From IMG/VR virus record IMGVR_UViG_3300018486_000146: a DNA stretch of 7,203 bases. One strand, given 5' to 3'. Positions 1,678 through 6,823 of this stretch are shown here, in pieces (positions within the stretch are counted from its first letter, which is position 1; each line of letters begins with the position of its first letter). The DNA comes from a virus. Its lineage: Duplodnaviria > Heunggongvirae > Uroviricota > Caudoviricetes. Both the position numbers and the translations under genes were made by a program. Below the pieces are notes generated by a model. The model saw only the letters and a program-made list of their open reading frames with translations. It made no database searches and was not told where the DNA came from.

Positions 1678-1764
1678 CCACAAATGTGGTATTTTGTGGG
1701 GTGTGAATACTACTTTATTGATATTTAAGTGAATTTAATTTGTAAGACTTTACAAATGGGGTAA

Positions 1765-1784: not shown

Positions 1785-1803
1785 GATATTTACGGTGGGA
1801 ATA

Positions 1804-2427
1804 CTAACGTTTACGGCGGTAAATACGGTGTTCGATCATTACACCTATGATCTGTAAGTTCATATCTGCACTACGAAAAATAGGGTAATCAGGATTTAGG
1901 GGGATTAATTCAAAGTCGTCGATGCCGATTCCTAATGGACGGTATTTTTTAAATGTAGCTTCGTGGCCGTCGTTTTTGGCGACAACAAACTCCCCTGGTG
2001 CAGGACATAGATCAGGATCGATGATAACAATGTCTCCTTCTTTAAACTCTGGTTGCATGCTGTCGCCATCGATACGTAATGCGAAGCATGTTTCTGGAAT
2101 GTCAGAGTCTGCCAAAATATATTCAAATTCCCCTGTCAGATCTGTTATGTCTCTTGCTTCTGTAAGCTCTCCTGCCTGAACGTAACTTAATATAGGTATG
2201 CGTCTGGTACTTATCTCCGCGAGAGGCATAATATTTTTACCGTTCAGTAGCCAGTCTGGGCTACATTTCAAGGCCTTAGCCAGATCCAGAAGATTGCGTG
2301 GCTTTCTGGTTCGTCCACTTTCGATGGATTCTATGGATTGTTGGCTAACCCCTGCAGAATTCGCTACTTCCACTTGAGTCATTCCTAATTCCAAACGACG
2401 TGCTTTAAAACGGGCTGCGAGAGACAT
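1804..2427 (-). CDS. cI: cI-type prophage repressor: N-terminal XRE/434-like HTH plus C-terminal LexA-like S24 autopeptidase domain
   Basis: The HTH region (MTQVEVANSAGVSQQSIESIESGRTRKPRNLLDLAKALKCSPDWLLNGK) aligns with the phage 434 repressor DNA-binding domain as recalled. The C-terminal domain carries an Ala-Gly cleavage site (VQAGEL), a GDSM serine motif and a downstream lysine (FKKY), typical of RecA-stimulated autocleavage. Start set at ATG 2427 (AAGGA 8 nt upstream), not the ORF-track start at 2478, which falls inside the operator region. Confidence 0.93.
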   Translation of the reverse strand: MSLAARFKARRLELGMTQVEVANSAGVSQQSIESIESGRTRKPRNLLDLAKALKCSPDWLLNGKNIMPLAEISTRRIPILSYVQAGELTEARDITDLTGEFEYILADSDIPETCFALRIDGDSMQPEFKEGDIVIIDPDLCPAPGEFVVAKNDGHEATFKKYRPLGIGIDDFELIPLNPDYPIFRSADMNLQIIGVMIEHRIYRRKR

Positions 2428-2450
2428 GGGATTAGTCCTTCTGGGTTGTA

Positions 2451-2472
2451 TTAATGTGTATCCCCACATTAA
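2451..2472. promoter_or_regulatory. 22-bp inverted repeat TTAATGTG-N6-CACATTAA in the cI-proximal part of the switch; unassigned protein-binding site
   Basis: Perfect 8-bp arms with a 6-bp spacer, 25-45 bp upstream of the cI start codon. It differs from the ACAA-N6-TTGT operators. A related AATGTGG / CCACAAATGTGG motif occurs at 1678-1689 near the left operator. Confidence 0.4.
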
Positions 2473-2474
2473 AA

Positions 2475-2488
2475 ACAATTTTTGTTGT
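2475..2488. promoter_or_regulatory. Right operator site OR-A (ACAATTTTTGTTGT), 434-type
   Basis: Exact ACAA-N6-TTGT match, immediately upstream of the -35 TTGACA of the rightward promoter. Confidence 0.5.
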
Positions 2489-2490
2489 AT

Positions 2491-2520
2491 TTGACAAACC
2501 TCGTTTGTTGTTGCTAAATA
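2491..2520 (+). promoter_or_regulatory. pR-like rightward promoter for cro and the primase-helicase (-35 TTGACA, 17-bp spacer, -10 CTAAAT/TAAATA)
   Basis: Consensus -35 TTGACA at 2491-2496; -10-like hexamer at 2514-2520; about 25 nt upstream of the cro ATG. Operator sites overlap it. Confidence 0.5.
2494..2508. promoter_or_regulatory. Right operator site OR-B (ACAAAC-CTC-GTTTGT), a perfect inverted repeat overlapping the pR -35/spacer
   Basis: Perfect 6-bp arms around a 3-bp centre. ACAA/TTGT ends as in 434 operators, but 15 bp long rather than 14. Confidence 0.45.
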
Positions 2521-2533
2521 CCACTAAAATTGT
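2520..2533. promoter_or_regulatory. Right operator site OR-C (ACCACTAAAATTGT), a degenerate 434-type site over the pR start region
   Basis: ACCA-N6-TTGT, one mismatch to the pattern, between the -10 and the cro ribosome-binding site. Confidence 0.35.
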
Positions 2534-2547
2534 ATGAGGTGAAAGCA

Positions 2548-2760
2548 ATGACCTTAGCGACCCGAGTAAAAGAACGACGTAAAGAACTCAAAATGACGCA
2601 AGTTACGTTGGCTGAGCTCACAGGAGTGAGCCAGCAGGCAATAAACAGAATTGAAAGTGGTGTTATTGCTCGGCCACGTTATCTTCTTGAAATGTCTATA
2701 GCATTGGATTGCGACCCTAATTGGCTGTTGTATGGCTCACAAAACGATAAAAAGGCGTAG
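2548..2760 (+). CDS. cro: Cro-like HTH repressor, 70 aa, phage 434 Cro family
   Basis: ATG 2548 with GAGGTG 6 nt upstream (the ORF-track start at 2530 is TTG). The sequence MTLATRVKERRKELKMTQVTLAELTGVSQQAINRIESGVIARPRYLLEMSIALDCDPNWLLYGSQNDKKA aligns along its length with 434 Cro as recalled. Divergent from cI across the operator region. Confidence 0.9.
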   Translation: MTLATRVKERRKELKMTQVTLAELTGVSQQAINRIESGVIARPRYLLEMSIALDCDPNWLLYGSQNDKKA

Positions 2761-2766
2761 CTCCCC

Positions 2767-4959
2767 ATGTCCGATAGCAAACCATGGGGAGCTACGCCTG
2801 ATGAGTGGTTTCATTTCGACCTGGTATTGGGGAGAACTGATCATCTTCTCCCAGTTGTATGTAACCCCAGTGCGACCATATCCCCTGATAGTAAACTGAA
2901 AGCGTTGGGTAAGACGCCGAGTCGCTATAACCGGGACCGCCAGGTCACCGGTATTGCTCAATGGACCGGGCATGTTGTTACTGAGCATGATTTTGCCCGC
3001 TGGTCGAATGAACCGGATTATGGCATCTGCGTGCGTACAGGCCATGGCTGGCTGGCGCTGGACTGTGATAGCGAAGATGAAGACATTCATGCAGATATTC
3101 GCAAAACGCTTGTGCAACTTCTGGGTGAGTTGCCGCCGCGACGCTGGCGAGCAAACAGTAATAAGTGTCTGTATCTGCTGGCCGTTGATGGTGATTTCCG
3201 TAAGCGTATCCATCGCCTGGCGGGGGATATGGGCATTATCGAGTTGCTGGCGAACGGGCAGCAGTTCGTTGCCTGCGGTACGCACAGCAGCGGCGCGCGT
3301 ATTGAATGGGACGGCGGTTTGCCGGATGAACCTCCGGCTATTACTGGTGAGCAGCTTGAAACGCTGTGGCAGCGCCTGGCTGAACAACTCCCTGTGTCGG
3401 TAACCACCGAAGCGGGCAACACGAAGATGCGCGACCGATCAGCATTCACGCCCGGCGCGACGGATGATACAGCTGAATATCTTGATGCCAATGGCTGGAC
3501 GCTGCTGGATGGCGCAAATGGTGAACGATATATCCGCTGTCCGTTTGAAGACGGCCACAGTAGCGGGGGCGATCCAACAAGCACAGTTTATTTTCCTGCG
3601 GGAACCGCGGGCTTTGAGCAGGGGCATTTTAAATGCCTGCATGCCAGTTGTGCGCATCGTGATGACGGAGATTTCCTTAATGCCATCGGGATCCGCAACG
3701 ACGATTTCGAAGATCTGACCAGCACCGAAGTGGCGGAACCTTTACCGCTGCCTGCTTTCGAGCGTGATAAATGGGGGCGTATCGAGGCAACAATCAGCAA
3801 CGCAGCCAAAGCAGTAGTACGCCCTGATTTTGTGGACATCGATATTCGCTTTGACCAGTTCCGCGACGAAATCATGTTTGCCCCTGCAGGATCCGGACAA
3901 TGGCGGGCATTCACCGATGCGGATTATGCGCGCCTGCGCATCACGATGGAAAAGCGGGGATTTAAACCTGTTGGTCGTGAACTTATTCGCGATGTGGTGT
4001 TACTTGCAGCCGATGAACAACCATTCGATTCAGCGATCACCTGGCTGAACGGACTGGAGTGGGATGGCGTGCCGCGCATCGAATGTTTCTACCATACGCA
4101 CTTCGGTACAGCCGACACGCCTTATACCCGTGCGGTGTCTATGTACATGTGGACCGCGTTGGCGGGGCGAGTACTGGAGCCAGGCATCAAAGCGGATATG
4201 GTGCCGATCCTCGTTGGTCCGCAGGGCTGCGGTAAGTCTTCCGGAGTGGAGGCACTGAGCCCTGATCCTGCGTTTTTTACTGAAATCTCTTTTGCCGAAA
4301 AAGACGATGATCTCGCTCGAAAAATGCGTGGTCGGCTGGTGGCAGAGATTGGTGAACTGCGCGGACTTAATACCAAAGAGCTGGAGTCAATCAAAGCGTT
4401 TGTGACGCGTACTCACGAAAACTGGATCCCGAAATACCGGGAGTTCGCCACCCAGTTTCCTCGTCGCCTGGTGTTCGTTGGTACCACCAATGAGGACGAA
4501 TTCCTTGCGGACAAGACTGGTAACCGTCGCTGGCTCCCCGTGGAAGTGTCGAAAGTCGACGTGAAAGCGATAAAAAGAGATCTCCTTTTACTTTGGGCTG
4601 AGGCTCGTGAGGTGTTTCAGCGTCTGGGGGGTATCCAGTTCCGTGAGGCTGAACAACTGGCAGCGAGTGTCCATGAACAGTACACCATCAAGGATGCTTG
4701 GCTTGAAACGGTAGAGAAATGGCTCGACACGCCAGACCTGATGACTAATGAACTTCCGCGAAATTGCGAATTTTTACGCGCAAGTGATGTTTTGCGTGAT
4801 GCGATTGGGCTAAATCCTGACCGCATCGGAAAACGCGAAGAAATGCGAATTAGTAATGTTTTGCAAAATTGCGGGTATAAGCGTGCCCAAAGGCGAATTG
4901 GGGGGAAAATGACTCGAATTTTTGAGGCGGTGTCCCAACCTGTACCAACCTCAAAATAG
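2767..4959 (+). CDS. Replication initiator: primase-polymerase N-terminal domain, zinc-binding Cys/His cluster, and C-terminal P-loop SF3/D5/VirE-like helicase domain (730 aa)
   Basis: N-terminal DxD motif (LALDCDSEDED) and GTHSSG, consistent with prim-pol. Cys/His cluster CPFEDGH...HFKCLHASCAH. Walker A GPQGCGKSS and an SF3-like motif C (VFVGTTNE). Starts 6 bp after the cro stop. Iterons lie at and after its 3' end. Confidence 0.92.
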   Translation: MSDSKPWGATPDEWFHFDLVLGRTDHLLPVVCNPSATISPDSKLKALGKTPSRYNRDRQVTGIAQWTGHVVTEHDFARWSNEPDYGICVRTGHGWLALDCDSEDEDIHADIRKTLVQLLGELPPRRWRANSNKCLYLLAVDGDFRKRIHRLAGDMGIIELLANGQQFVACGTHSSGARIEWDGGLPDEPPAITGEQLETLWQRLAEQLPVSVTTEAGNTKMRDRSAFTPGATDDTAEYLDANGWTLLDGANGERYIRCPFEDGHSSGGDPTSTVYFPAGTAGFEQGHFKCLHASCAHRDDGDFLNAIGIRNDDFEDLTSTEVAEPLPLPAFERDKWGRIEATISNAAKAVVRPDFVDIDIRFDQFRDEIMFAPAGSGQWRAFTDADYARLRITMEKRGFKPVGRELIRDVVLLAADEQPFDSAITWLNGLEWDGVPRIECFYHTHFGTADTPYTRAVSMYMWTALAGRVLEPGIKADMVPILVGPQGCGKSSGVEALSPDPAFFTEISFAEKDDDLARKMRGRLVAEIGELRGLNTKELESIKAFVTRTHENWIPKYREFATQFPRRLVFVGTTNEDEFLADKTGNRRWLPVEVSKVDVKAIKRDLLLLWAEAREVFQRLGGIQFREAEQLAASVHEQYTIKDAWLETVEKWLDTPDLMTNELPRNCEFLRASDVLRDAIGLNPDRIGKREEMRISNVLQNCGYKRAQRRIGGKMTRIFEAVSQPVPTSK

Positions 4960-5112
4960 ATGTTGGTACATTTTAACTAATTGAATTTAAAGGCCGGTAC
5001 CAACTGTACCATCTGTACCAACCTAATTACTAAGAACCCCATATATATATATAAGTCGCTTGGGGAAAAGGTTTGAAAAGAGCTGGTACAGGTGGGTACA
5101 GGTTGGTACAGG
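4931..5112. repeat. Iteron array flanking an (AT)n tract: putative phage origin of replication
   Basis: Core TGTACCA(ACC) in direct orientation at 4931-4950 (two tandem 10-mers inside the primase 3' end), 4996-5004, 5005-5013 and 5014-5023. ATATATATATATA at 5041-5053. Inverted copies (C/T)(T/G)GGTACAGG at 5083-5092, 5093-5102 and 5103-5112 with exact 10-bp periodicity, plus one inverted copy at 4961-4970. Confidence 0.65.
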
Positions 5113-5167
5113 CCGAACAAGGAATTTTTTGCGCATAACAGCGTGTAATAAGCGAATCGGAACTGCG

Positions 5168-5176
5168 TTATCCACA
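5168..5176 (+). promoter_or_regulatory. Consensus DnaA box TTATCCACA next to the iteron origin
   Basis: Exact 9/9 match to TTATCCACA, about 55 bp downstream of the last iteron. An inverted GGATAA follows 8 bp later. A single 9-mer can occur by chance (roughly 5% expectation in this window), so the location is what gives it weight. Confidence 0.45.
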
Positions 5177-5240
5177 CCCACGGATAAACAAACGTGGTTC
5201 TCAGAAAATTTTTTCGTAGCAAAACGTAGAGGTCAGAGCT

Positions 5241-5663
5241 ATGCGTAATATTCAACAGGTTTTAGAGCGCTGGGGTGGCTGGGCAGCGAGTGAAGGTGGT
5301 AGCGTCTACTTTCCTCCTGTTGCAGCCGGGTTTAAGAATCTGCTACCCGCGACGCAGTCTGGAAGGCTGAAATGCAGTGACAATGACGGACTTATCATCA
5401 ACTCCGCTATGAGCTGCCTGAAGAAAAAAGATCCGTATCTGTGCACGCTCCTTGAGTGGCATTACGTCCAGGCCATGCCCGTGCGGGCGATGGGTGAGAA
5501 GCTCGGCGTATCTCACACCCACGTTCTGAAGAGGCTTCAGGCGGCAGAGGGATTTATTGACGGTTGCTTAGCCATGCTGGATGTGGTGCTCGAAATGGAT
5601 CAGTCGGTTCAGTCAAAGCCTCAGGCTATCAGGACTTTGCGTAGGAGCTGCTCGGCGGCATAA
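5241..5663 (+). CDS. Q: Late-gene antiterminator Q, phage 82 / QuuD family (140 aa)
   Basis: ATG 5241 with TAGAGG upstream. Motifs LERWGGWAA, AAGFKNL and KRLQAAEGFIDGCLAMLDVVLEMD align with the E. coli DLP12 QuuD antiterminator as recalled (LERWGAWAA, AAGFKGL, KRLQKAEGIIEGMLMALDIRLEMD). Confidence 0.82.
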   Translation: MRNIQQVLERWGGWAASEGGSVYFPPVAAGFKNLLPATQSGRLKCSDNDGLIINSAMSCLKKKDPYLCTLLEWHYVQAMPVRAMGEKLGVSHTHVLKRLQAAEGFIDGCLAMLDVVLEMDQSVQSKPQAIRTLRRSCSAA

Positions 5664-5694: not shown

Positions 5695-6036
5695 ATGGCT
5701 CTGATCAGCGTTCGCAACAGATTTGAAAGCTTCATGGAACAGAGGTACCCAGACCTGTCGTTGCAGGTCAAAGGTAATATTAGCGCATCAATGAAGGCTC
5801 AACTTGGCATCAGGATTGAACGAGAATTGTACAGTGAAGATGTTACTTACTGTGATTCAGCAGTTCAGTTGATGTGGACACTCTTTCAGGCAGGTGTTCT
5901 GGCCGAACGAAGAGCTACCAGCGTTACGCTTCCTGCGCTGAAGGCAAAGCCGGATAGCTTCTACGATGCGGGTTATAACGAAGGTATTCAGGACTGTCGT
6001 AAACATCTGACGGCATCAGGCATCAAGGTAAGATAA
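5695..6036 (+). CDS. Hypothetical protein, 113 aa, in the Q-to-lysis (stx-equivalent) cargo slot; function unknown
   Basis: ATG 5695 with AAGGGAA upstream. The protein is not low-complexity and no transmembrane segment or signal peptide is obvious. An intrinsic terminator follows about 70 bp downstream. No family recognised. Confidence 0.6.
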   Translation: MALISVRNRFESFMEQRYPDLSLQVKGNISASMKAQLGIRIERELYSEDVTYCDSAVQLMWTLFQAGVLAERRATSVTLPALKAKPDSFYDAGYNEGIQDCRKHLTASGIKVR

Positions 6037-6103
6037 AAAATAGTTGTGGAATTCCAAAAAGCCGATTAGCCTGATATCCGTTGAAAACAGTTCATCACGA
6101 AGA

Positions 6104-6127
6104 GGCTTCCGCAAGGGGGCCTTTTTT
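6104..6127 (+). terminator. Intrinsic terminator downstream of the 113-aa ORF
   Basis: GGCTTCC-GCAA-GGGGGCC forms a 7-bp stem (5 Watson-Crick and 2 G-U pairs) with a GNRA tetraloop, followed by TTTTTT. Confidence 0.6.
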
Positions 6128-6357
6128 ATTGCCCCATTCTGGGGAAAAGTTAATAAAACAGGGCTTTCGCTGCGAAAAAACGCTATGCAGTTTTTGCCCT
6201 TTTTTATGCACCTTTTATTCACTCGAATTTCGTCATTCTGGACCACTTAAGTTGATTAAATAGTCCTTTCATCGCAAATCTATTGCGAGCGGGGATCGTG
6301 TGGTTCCTATAACGTACATTATGTTAAATAACTTCCTTTTTTAACAAATTTAACAAG

Positions 6358-6380
6358 GTTCGCTATGGCGAACTTTTTTT
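6358..6380 (+). terminator. Strong intrinsic terminator upstream of the lysis genes, a tR'-like candidate
   Basis: GTTCGC-tatg-GCGAAC is a perfect 6-bp stem with a 4-nt loop, followed by seven T. It lies about 100 bp upstream of the holin start. Confidence 0.7.
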
Positions 6381-6481
6381 GTATTCAGGGCCCACCGAAG
6401 GACGGCTCATAACCCAATCCTACGGGCGTATACGCAGGGCCCGCCTTTCAACAACACCCCGTAATGGCGGAGGTGGGAAGT

Positions 6482-6823
6482 ATGAAAATGCACAATGCTC
6501 CTCATTCCTGGCCTGACTTACTGGAACTCTTACAAAGTTGGTGGCGTGGAGATACGCCGTTGGGCGCAGTGGTTATGTCAATTGTTATGGCTGGCTTGCG
6601 CATTGCCTATTTTGGCGGTGGCGGCGGCTGGAAACGAAAAACGCTTGAGATTTTGCTCTGTGGTGCTCTGACGCTGACTTTTGCATCCGCTCTTGAGTAT
6701 GTCGGATGGCCTAAATCGCTTTCTGTTGCCATTGGTGGTGGTGTTGGGCTGATCGGTGTCGATGCTATTCGTGGGGCTGCAATGCGAGTAATCGGTAACA
6801 AATTTGGTGGCTCTAAGGAGTAA
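6482..6823 (+). CDS. Holin, 113 aa, three predicted transmembrane segments, with a Met-Lys-Met dual-start motif (possible holin/antiholin pair)
   Basis: GGAGGTGGG at 6469-6477 precedes ATG 6482, AAA, ATG 6488. Hydrophobic segments LGAVVMSIVMAGLRIAYF, LEILLCGALTLTFASALEYV and SLSVAIGGGVGLIGVDAI. The stop lies 3 nt before the endolysin start. The ORF-track start at 6464 falls inside the Shine-Dalgarno and was rejected. Not similar to lambda S by eye. Confidence 0.8.
   Translation: MKMHNAPHSWPDLLELLQSWWRGDTPLGAVVMSIVMAGLRIAYFGGGGGWKRKTLEILLCGALTLTFASALEYVGWPKSLSVAIGGGVGLIGVDAIRGAAMRVIGNKFGGSKE

Follow-up and report, generated by a model that had tools for sequence, protein, structure and literature searches.

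Positions 4931-5110 of the window (the whole 7,203-nucleotide stretch of the Caudoviricetes record IMGVR_UViG_3300018486_000146 that was analysed), lying in a wider functional stretch of approximately 4901-5160, are very likely the vegetative replication origin of a temperate Escherichia coli prophage, recognised by the 730-amino-acid VapE-domain protein encoded upstream and referred to here as the initiator. The window originates from an E. coli prophage, with 99.4% identity over 4600-5400 and 99.3% over 4700-5400 to the prophages of strains BH100N, F11 and others; in BH100N, the element is a prophage of approximately 42 kb located between yfhH and yfhL. The initial annotation of the window had proposed an initiator-bound origin with an unwinding element, nearer to that of P4 alpha or of the phage-inducible chromosomal islands (PICI) than to that of lambda, and the features that it listed were all found at or near the places where it had put them. 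This proposal is supported by the homology of the helicase core of the initiator to Rep of the staphylococcal pathogenicity island (SaPI) SaPI1, by the conserved layout of the locus and by the covariation between the repeats and one part of the initiator, the wing of its C-terminal winged helix.

The array consists of nine copies of the 9-bp iteron TGTACCAAC (at most one mismatch, both strands). Two direct copies are followed by an inverted copy, an AT patch, three direct copies, a 58-bp AT-rich spacer with an (AT)n tract and three inverted copies (>> < [AT patch] >>> [spacer] <<<; Table 1). The opposed blocks described initially were thus recovered, as was the (AT)n tract of 13 nucleotides between them (5041-5053), whereas the count of seven to eight iterons with a GTACCA core had to be raised to nine. 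The three words of the right-hand block, read on the minus strand, are TGTACCAGC, TGTACCCAC and TGTACCAAC. Only one further match to TGTACCAAC with up to one mismatch was found in the window, at position 4477, and 12 occurrences of the hexamer GTACCA were counted where 2.3 would be expected. In a statistic independent of any chosen word, in which the best 9-mer family per 180 bp was compared with that in 300 dinucleotide-preserving shuffles, the segment 4931-5110 yielded nine copies, the shuffles yielded 2.4 on average with a maximum of 4, and the other 180-bp stretches of the window yielded no more than 4, (AT)n words excepted. The array is the sole iteron cluster of the approximately 42-kb prophage, matches elsewhere being isolated and at chance frequency.

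The array begins 27 bp before the stop codon of the initiator gene, and iterons 1 and 2 lie inside the last codons of the gene, ahead of its TAG, as had been noted initially. This overlap with the coding sequence is considered incidental, because in relatives the stop codon can precede the start of the pair by as much as 31 bp or follow it by as much as 30 bp. Residues 724-730, which are encoded by iteron DNA, are predicted to be disordered (AlphaFold2 model). Iterons 2 and 3 form a 12-bp inverted repeat on either side of the stop codon. The exact 10-bp spacing reported for the right-hand block holds in the window; the placement of the copies on the same helical face does not extend to a rule, since the right-hand blocks of relatives are spaced by 9 or 10 bp and the left-hand triple by 9 bp throughout. 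As far as these sequences go, the rule of iteron spacing is contiguous packing and not helical phasing, with 9 bp being the commoner value in the family.

Comparison with the prophages CB9615 and Rb50 delimited the stretch termed here the specificity cassette. CB9615 was 99-100% identical to the window over 1801-4900 and Rb50 over 2801-4900 (its repressor/cro region is different), and from 5161 on both agreed with the window at 18-20 of 20 positions per 20-bp bin, whereas inside 4901-5160 the identity was 50-76% per 100 bp, with 8-19 of 20 positions per 20-bp bin. Sharp divergence between E. coli prophages with 99-100% identical flanks was confined to this cassette. All iteron copies of CB9615 and Rb50 read TGGAACCAC, not TGTACCAAC, and a third E. 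coli type, exemplified by RIVM_C036204, carries TGTTACCAC at every copy. The E. coli initiators are identical through residue 713 and then continue as MTRIFEAV..., KCKVWEPL... or ETRRVEGKLMKVWRRA, which are residues of the wing. Identical repressor and Cro-like proteins are shared by BH100N and CB9615, an identical Q by BH100N and Rb50, and an identical TerS by CB9615 and RIVM_C036204, and the iterons are different within each of these pairs. In the prophages compared, the iteron type tracks the initiator wing only, and not the allele of the repressor, Cro, Q or TerS.

The same correspondence was found across genera. Wings of the form xxRIFE occurred with GTACCAAC in Escherichia, Xenorhabdus and Photorhabdus; KCK[VL]WE occurred with GGAACCAC in Escherichia, Trabulsiella and Photorhabdus; and QQR[IV]F occurred with AGACAACC in Yersinia, Providencia, Morganella and Phlomobacter, the last iteron being retained in the Arsenophonus locus L024 with the variant wing IQTRVF. 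In addition, LMKVW was paired with GTTACCAC and VCRVW with GTAACAAC. Like wings went together with like iterons even in backbones that were only 73-80% identical or had different N-terminal halves. Blind prediction of the iteron from the wing motif alone was correct for all four new loci, which came from a large protein search and encoded proteins with backbones 64-93% identical to the window protein; in each of the four contigs, the predicted 8-mer was the commonest one after the gene and was present in 5-9 exact copies with the same layout. Some ungapped comparisons gave a "body identity" of approximately 0.25; one-residue indels had put them out of register, and these values were discarded.

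It is tentatively suggested that these pairs may represent a small natural code, in which the wing residues, mainly the five that follow an invariant G-K, would set the specificity of the origin in this widespread family; the concerted change of all nine copies with the wing and the return of the same types in other genera would then point to long-lived and diversifying types of "replicon orthogonality", selected to keep co-resident prophages or satellites from using each other's initiator. Co-resident copies do occur, one E. coli genome having two. The same iteron and wing types were observed on lineage-typical spacers in different genera (4901-5160 compared with L013, L016, L031 and L042); for example, AGACAACC is combined with a spacer of the Escherichia type in L042 but with another one in phage YeP4.

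The initiator comprises an N-terminal Prim-Pol region of the archaeo-eukaryotic type, a zinc-binding stretch, a VapE-type P-loop helicase core and a C-terminal winged helix. The Pfam search of the protein returned only VapE-like_dom (residues 427-639, E-value = 2e-60) and, below the cutoff, DUF5906, with no match to Toprim, DnaG or plasmid Rep families, while PHROG assigned a DNA primase (phrog_1156) to residues 5-318 and a DNA helicase (phrog_256) to residues 281-712. PF09250 (Prim-Pol) is precomputed on close relatives, some of which are named "replication protein" or "bifunctional DNA primase/polymerase" by their sources; the initiator has approximately 1370 homologues. One solved structure was strongly matched by the profile of the family (alignment A2), namely, 7pds_A, SaPI1 Rep1 with DNA (E-value = 5.3e-40, profile positions 393-656). 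The full-length AlphaFold2 model had a predicted template modelling score of 0.37 and low-confidence linkers, and only the secondary structure, not the arrangement of domains, was taken from it. The last 85 residues or so were modelled as helix, short strand, helix, helix, strand and strand with a predicted local distance difference test score of 70-84, and according to this model the C-terminus is a winged helix with a beta-hairpin wing.

Conservation of the layout was assessed in a set that combined 23 loci from a scan of one genome per species with phage and E. coli loci; 27 of them had an intact gene end. The order of two direct and one inverted copies, two to three direct copies at 9 bp, an AT-rich spacer and two to three inverted copies at 9-10 bp was found after the gene in 26 of the 27, covering at least 12 genera and nine different iteron 8-mers. 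These loci include Escherichia, Trabulsiella, Pluralibacter, Pectobacterium, Xenorhabdus, Photorhabdus, Providencia, Morganella, Arsenophonus and Phlomobacter, as well as Yersinia phage YeP4, Hamiltonella phage APSE-1 and a Burkholderiales metagenome-assembled genome (MAG). Iteron 3 held the same relative place in 25 of 26 related loci (L032 unscored), and the two triples, measured from the first left-hand copy through to the last right-hand one, spanned 106-118 bp in 20 of 24. The YeP4 protein (74% identity) is followed by the same layout built from AGACAACC, and the APSE-1 protein (71% identity over the C-terminal half) by the same layout built from GTAACAAC.

The one exception was a truncated Sodalis copy. 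In this locus (L026, Candidatus Sodalis endolongispinus), the gene is interrupted and truncated, with in-frame stop codons, and no iteron array was found downstream; judging by this locus, the replication module appears to decay as a unit in the endosymbiont. In the more distant phages Caulobacter Jess A and Acidovorax ACF1, short tandem repeats stand directly after the gene, and Caulobacter phages of the Rauchvirus type, with 45% identity to the initiator, have GTAACCAC repeats in this place. The protein of Escherichia phage vB_EcoM-683R1 (L035, 1966-4560) is 52% identical in the N-terminal primase half and different in the C-terminal half, and downstream of its gene stand direct and inverted copies of another repeat, AGGTGACGG, which suggests, on the evidence of this phage, that initiators shuffle domains, each with its own origin.

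Within the spacer, the proposed DNA-unwinding element, the segment 5024-5053 is the least stable 30-mer of the 7.2-kb window (nearest-neighbour energy, z = 3.6). The spacer also carries a scaffold, AACCCCAT(AT)nAAGTCG together with GG(G)AAAGGTT, which remains constant across genera while the iteron words vary. A T-run-GC(A) motif located 10-25 bp past the right triple recurs in the window, YeP4, the other E. coli types, Xenorhabdus L013 and the Burkholderiales MAG (L015). The scaffold and this motif could serve for priming or be contacted by the part of the initiator that does not vary. The length of the (AT)n tract varied from 9 to 13 nucleotides among near-identical E. coli prophages (alignment A1), in the manner of a microsatellite in the middle of the proposed unwinding element.

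The proposed mechanism is based on the published SaPI model, which fits the locus point for point (PMC9371898). The winged helix of the initiator would bind the 9-bp iterons with the consensus TGTACCAAC, discriminating between them mostly by the beta-hairpin wing (residues 704-721) and above all by the five residues after the invariant G-K (M-T-R-I-F). The two iteron triples, which face each other across the 58-bp spacer, would assemble one helicase ring per side; opening of the spacer would take place at the (AT)n tract, with the helicase loading itself independently of host DnaA, DnaB or DnaC. The Prim-Pol domain would then lay primers, to be extended by the family-A DNA polymerase that the phage encodes in its leftward operon. 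The >> < trio at the end of the gene may serve as a conserved auxiliary binding cluster. The repeats and their statistics, the domains of the protein, its homology to SaPI Rep, the conserved layout and the covariation of iterons and wing are observed, whereas binding, melting, the loading of two rings, priming and the independence of the initiator from DnaA are inferred.

Several results weigh against an origin read in this way. The wing codons adjoin the iterons, so that linkage alone would co-transfer them; the wing is nevertheless regarded as the determinant, because the rest of the protein is identical and the pairs from different genera agree. At a scale of 50-70 bp, other intergenic stretches melt as easily as the spacer or more easily. 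The GC skew over 24.7 kb of the prophage showed no origin signal, although it is uninformative here, since its change of sign tracks the divergent gene orientation near the repressor/cro boundary and not the iterons. Finally, the opposed iterons also yield a 123-nucleotide hairpin, with which recognition based on structure stays compatible.

Recognition of the origin by DNA structure and not by the iteron sequence, as a cruciform or, after melting, a single-strand hairpin on which the replication protein would assemble, of the kind proposed for pRN1 and Bordetella phage BIP-1/BPP-1, is improbable. The single strand 4925-5120 is predicted to fold into a small hairpin (4941-4970) and the 123-nucleotide hairpin (4992-5114), with a free energy of -35.1 kcal/mol (z = -4.9). 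The stem-loop downstream of orf904 of pRN1 is needed for replication, and a large stem-loop lies 3' of the homologous BIP-1 gene (PMC4234260); the Rauchvirus relatives mentioned above also belong among the points in favour. However, a stem needs mere complementarity of its arms, whereas each arm here consists of three tandem copies of one 9-mer, and the arms are out of register, with 9-bp spacing in one and 10-bp spacing in the other. The same 9-mer recurs in iterons 1 and 2, outside the large hairpin, where with iteron 3 it gives only the small one. The iteron word, moreover, tracks the wing motif across genera, and this correspondence sufficed for the four correct predictions. The two modes of recognition are compatible, as sequence-specific loading could be followed by hairpin formation.

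The consensus scan of 4800-5400 found no promoter or terminator, and Rfam matched no known RNA family in 4800-5300, its sole match being a microRNA precursor far below the threshold, caused by the long hairpin. The hairpin with the following T-run was considered as a terminator, and this was unsupported, since the scan was negative; the T-run begins 10 nucleotides past the stem.

A host dependence like that of iteron plasmids, with DnaA at 5168-5176 helping to open the AT-rich region or to load DnaB, is highly improbable. An exact 9/9 match to the DnaA box, TTATCCACA, does lie 58 bp past the last iteron (approximately 55 bp in the initial annotation), and it is exact in four of the seven aligned E. 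coli loci, the window counted. By chance, approximately 0.001 exact or 0.006 relaxed-consensus boxes are expected in the 100 bp beside the origin (word-length arithmetic). Nevertheless, it is a single box, the sole exact copy in the window, with one-mismatch matches at chance level. It stands outside the cassette, in a flank that is 99-100% identical through recent ancestry, it takes the degenerate form TTATTCACG in TGTTACCAC-type E. coli prophages, and it was missing within 450 bp past the stop codon in 21 of the 26 relatives, among them those of Yersinia, Xenorhabdus, Photorhabdus, APSE-1 and Trabulsiella. For these reasons the box is not regarded as a conserved part of the origin, and the role in the origin initially given to it is not upheld: by these comparisons it probably does not belong to the origin module. 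The initiator, homologous to the self-loading SaPI Rep, has its own helicase and primase, and the prophage encodes a DNA polymerase; given the former, the box is most likely irrelevant to initiation, and a real role of DnaA at 5168-5176 is very doubtful. The box also makes up the left half of an inverted repeat, TTATCC-N8-GGATAA (5168-5187). Conservation of this repeat is imperfect, although the surrounding block upstream of Q is highly conserved among prophages with the same replication module; the repeat, and with it the box, may regulate Q rather than replication.

It is exceedingly improbable that the array serves the initiator as a regulatory site, through autoregulation or as a roadblock timing read-through from the early operon into Q, or that it is a packaging or partition site: it does lie between the last early gene and Q, with no promoter- or terminator-like site, so that binding could affect Q, yet YeP4, APSE-1, Caulobacter Jess A and ACF1 show the layout although another gene than Q comes next, the opposed triples with a fixed length of 106-118 bp and an (AT)n centre have the anatomy of an origin, as in SaPI, and no partition genes are annotated in the whole prophage. 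A packaging site read by TerS was rejected, as the identical TerS of CB9615 and RIVM goes with different iterons, and an operator of the repressor or Cro was rejected on the same ground, identical alleles of both being found with different iterons.

As a probable iteron origin read by the initiator, the module is of the same kind as the SaPI Rep/ori, P4 alpha/ori and pRN1/BPP-1 systems, i.e., a replicase with an origin downstream of its gene. In SaPI, 6-12 iterons stand directly downstream of rep around an AT-rich centre, with at least two opposed iterons per side, and Rep is both initiator and helicase; its C-terminal winged helix reads the iterons, and Rep melts the origin and self-loads without host loaders; in SaPI5, a primase is fused to Rep as PriRep5 (PMC9371898). 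Work on SaPI Rep and ori includes that of Ubeda and colleagues, as cited in PMC9371898, and the cryogenic electron microscopy structures 7OLA, 7OM0 and 7PDS. The module of the window resembles this system in the homologous helicase core, the C-terminal winged helix, the origin 3' of the gene with a number of downstream iterons within the range of 6-12 and opposed sides around an AT-rich centre, the fusion of primase and helicase as in PriRep5, and an origin specificity matched to the initiator, for which the evidence in the window family is covariation only. It differs in that it belongs to a full 42-kb prophage, which itself encodes a DNA polymerase, and not to a satellite island, that its iterons are 9 bp long and placed head to tail whereas those of SaPI are penta- or hexanucleotides, and that it has the additional >> < trio, conserved non-iteron motifs in the spacer and a primase of the Prim-Pol type. 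PICI are satellites of approximately 10-15 kb without structural and lysis genes; the element of the window, being a complete prophage, does not belong to them.

The alpha protein of satellite phage P4 combines a primase, a ring helicase and a C-terminal winged helix that binds short origin repeats in one polypeptide (PMC2777425, PMC4234260), and the initiator of the window has the same one-polypeptide make-up. The primase of P4 is of the DnaG/Toprim type, whereas that of the window is a Prim-Pol, and P4 has two separated iteron regions, ori and crr, whereas the prophage has a single cluster. The element of pRN1/BIP-1 was read by Berkner et al. (2014) as a stem-loop and explicitly contrasted with iteron origins (PMC4234260). 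Likeness to pRN1 ORF904/BIP-1 lies in the order of Prim-Pol, superfamily 3-type helicase and winged helix and in a hairpin of approximately 100 nucleotides just 3' of the gene; it is a likeness of domain order and hairpin, pRN1 being placed in a different helicase annotation (D5_N/COG3378). The window family differs in that the arms are tandem iterons covarying with the wing.

In the lambdoid O/ori system and in iteron plasmids (pSC101, RK2, F, P1), an initiator also binds repeats beside an AT-rich region, and lambdoid phages exchange the specificities of initiator and origin together. Unlike the present module, lambda has its ori inside O, and its P recruits host DnaB, whereas the initiator of the window is itself helicase and primase. 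Iteron plasmids have unrelated Rep proteins, iterons of 17-22 bp and functional DnaA boxes; in the window family, Pfam found no initiator of the RepA, pi or TrfA kind and the DnaA box is not conserved. What is new here are the contiguous 9-bp iterons, the fixed core of approximately 116 bp, the spacer scaffold, the specificity stretch of approximately 260 bp and the wing-iteron correspondence. A search of the literature found, in the library covered, no described origin for these VapE-type prophages, APSE or YeP4-6; the genomics paper on APSE placed the origin of that phage by a skew program only.

The genes around the initiator gene are given in Table 1, and the prophage encodes an integrase, terminase, head, tail and baseplate proteins, a holin and an endolysin. 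The leftward operon, left of the window (L001, 1-9000), encodes the family-A DNA polymerase, DUF2800, DUF2815, VRR-NUC, an Nmad5 "nucleotide modification" protein, two methyltransferases and an SNF2-related protein. Because of this gene content, the phage is considered largely self-sufficient for replication, and the genes of the operon indicate that it may modify its DNA.

Table 1. Positions of the origin features, the parts of the initiator and the neighbouring genes in the window
Feature	Position	Strand	Remarks
Specificity cassette	4901-5160		~260 bp; beta3 and tail codons, nine iterons, spacer, ~50 bp beyond
Iterons 1-2	4931-4939 (TGTCCCAAC), 4941-4949 (TGTACCAAC, exact)	+	direct, 10 bp apart, in the last codons of the gene
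Iteron 3	4962-4970	-	inverted, exact
First AT-rich patch	4971-4995		25 bp, 76% A+T, iteron 3 to left triple
Left triple	4996-5004 (GGTACCAAC), 5005-5013 (TGTACCATC), 5014-5022 (TGTACCAAC, exact)	+	9 + 9 bp, head to tail, toward spacer
AT-rich spacer, proposed DNA-unwinding element	5023-5081		58 bp, 67% A+T
Spacer scaffold motifs	5035-5042 (AACCCCAT), 5053-5058 (AAGTCG), 5062-5074 (GGGGAAAAGGTTT)		not dependent on iteron type
Right triple	5082-5090, 5092-5100, 5102-5110 (exact)	-	10 + 10 bp, toward spacer
T-run-GC(A) motif, TTTTTTGCG	5125-5133	+	10-25 bp past right triple
DnaA-box consensus, exact, TTATCCACA	5168-5176	+	58 bp past last iteron
LexA/S24-type repressor gene	1804-2478	-	open reading frame (ORF) list and Pfam
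Cro-like helix-turn-helix protein gene	2530-2760		ORF list and Pfam
730-residue VapE-domain initiator gene	2767-4959	+	ORF; TAG stop at 4957-4959
Winged-helix codons	4687-4929	+	residues ~641-721
Predicted recognition helix			residues 689-701
Wing strand beta2	4876-4899		residues 704-711
Wing strand beta3	4906-4929		residues 714-721
Intergenic gap			281 bp, between initiator gene and Q
Q antiterminator gene	5241-5663
Holin gene	6464-6823

Some other parts of the window should be mentioned. An ORF of 113 codons between Q and the lysis genes (5695-6036) had only unknown-function or weak PHROG matches, and a clean gap stands in its place in the RIVM_C036204 and 357900 prophages; in this comparison it looks like an insertable accessory gene. 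Between this ORF and the holin gene, approximately 430 bp (6037-6463) are without an annotated coding sequence (only short ORFs of 45-76 amino acids). Part of this region (6307-6356) ranks among the least stable stretches of the window, and a late promoter dependent on Q, with its qut site, would be expected here. On the left, approximately 600 bp (1204-1803) separate a 60-amino-acid ORF from the repressor gene, with no gene annotated there in BH100N; this stretch contains the least stable 50-mer of the window (1707-1756) and the palindromic TGGTACCA at 1308-1315.

The class of mechanism proposed here is already known, and current views are not overturned by it. The finding places the origin for common prophages of E. 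coli, Enterobacter, Salmonella and Klebsiella, for the aphid-symbiont phage APSE and for YeP4-6, and the "VapE domain-containing protein" of these elements gains a concrete predicted role as an origin-binding primase-helicase. It also connects three systems that have been studied separately, SaPI Rep, P4 alpha and pRN1/BPP-1, and suggests that the "stem-loop" origin of the BPP-1 type consists of two opposed iteron arrays. The natural series of nearly identical phages, set apart by wing and iterons alone, provides a clean system for the reading of DNA by the wing and for orthogonal replicons; if the tentative code outlined above is true, at least nine orthogonal pairs of initiator and origin would be ready for use.

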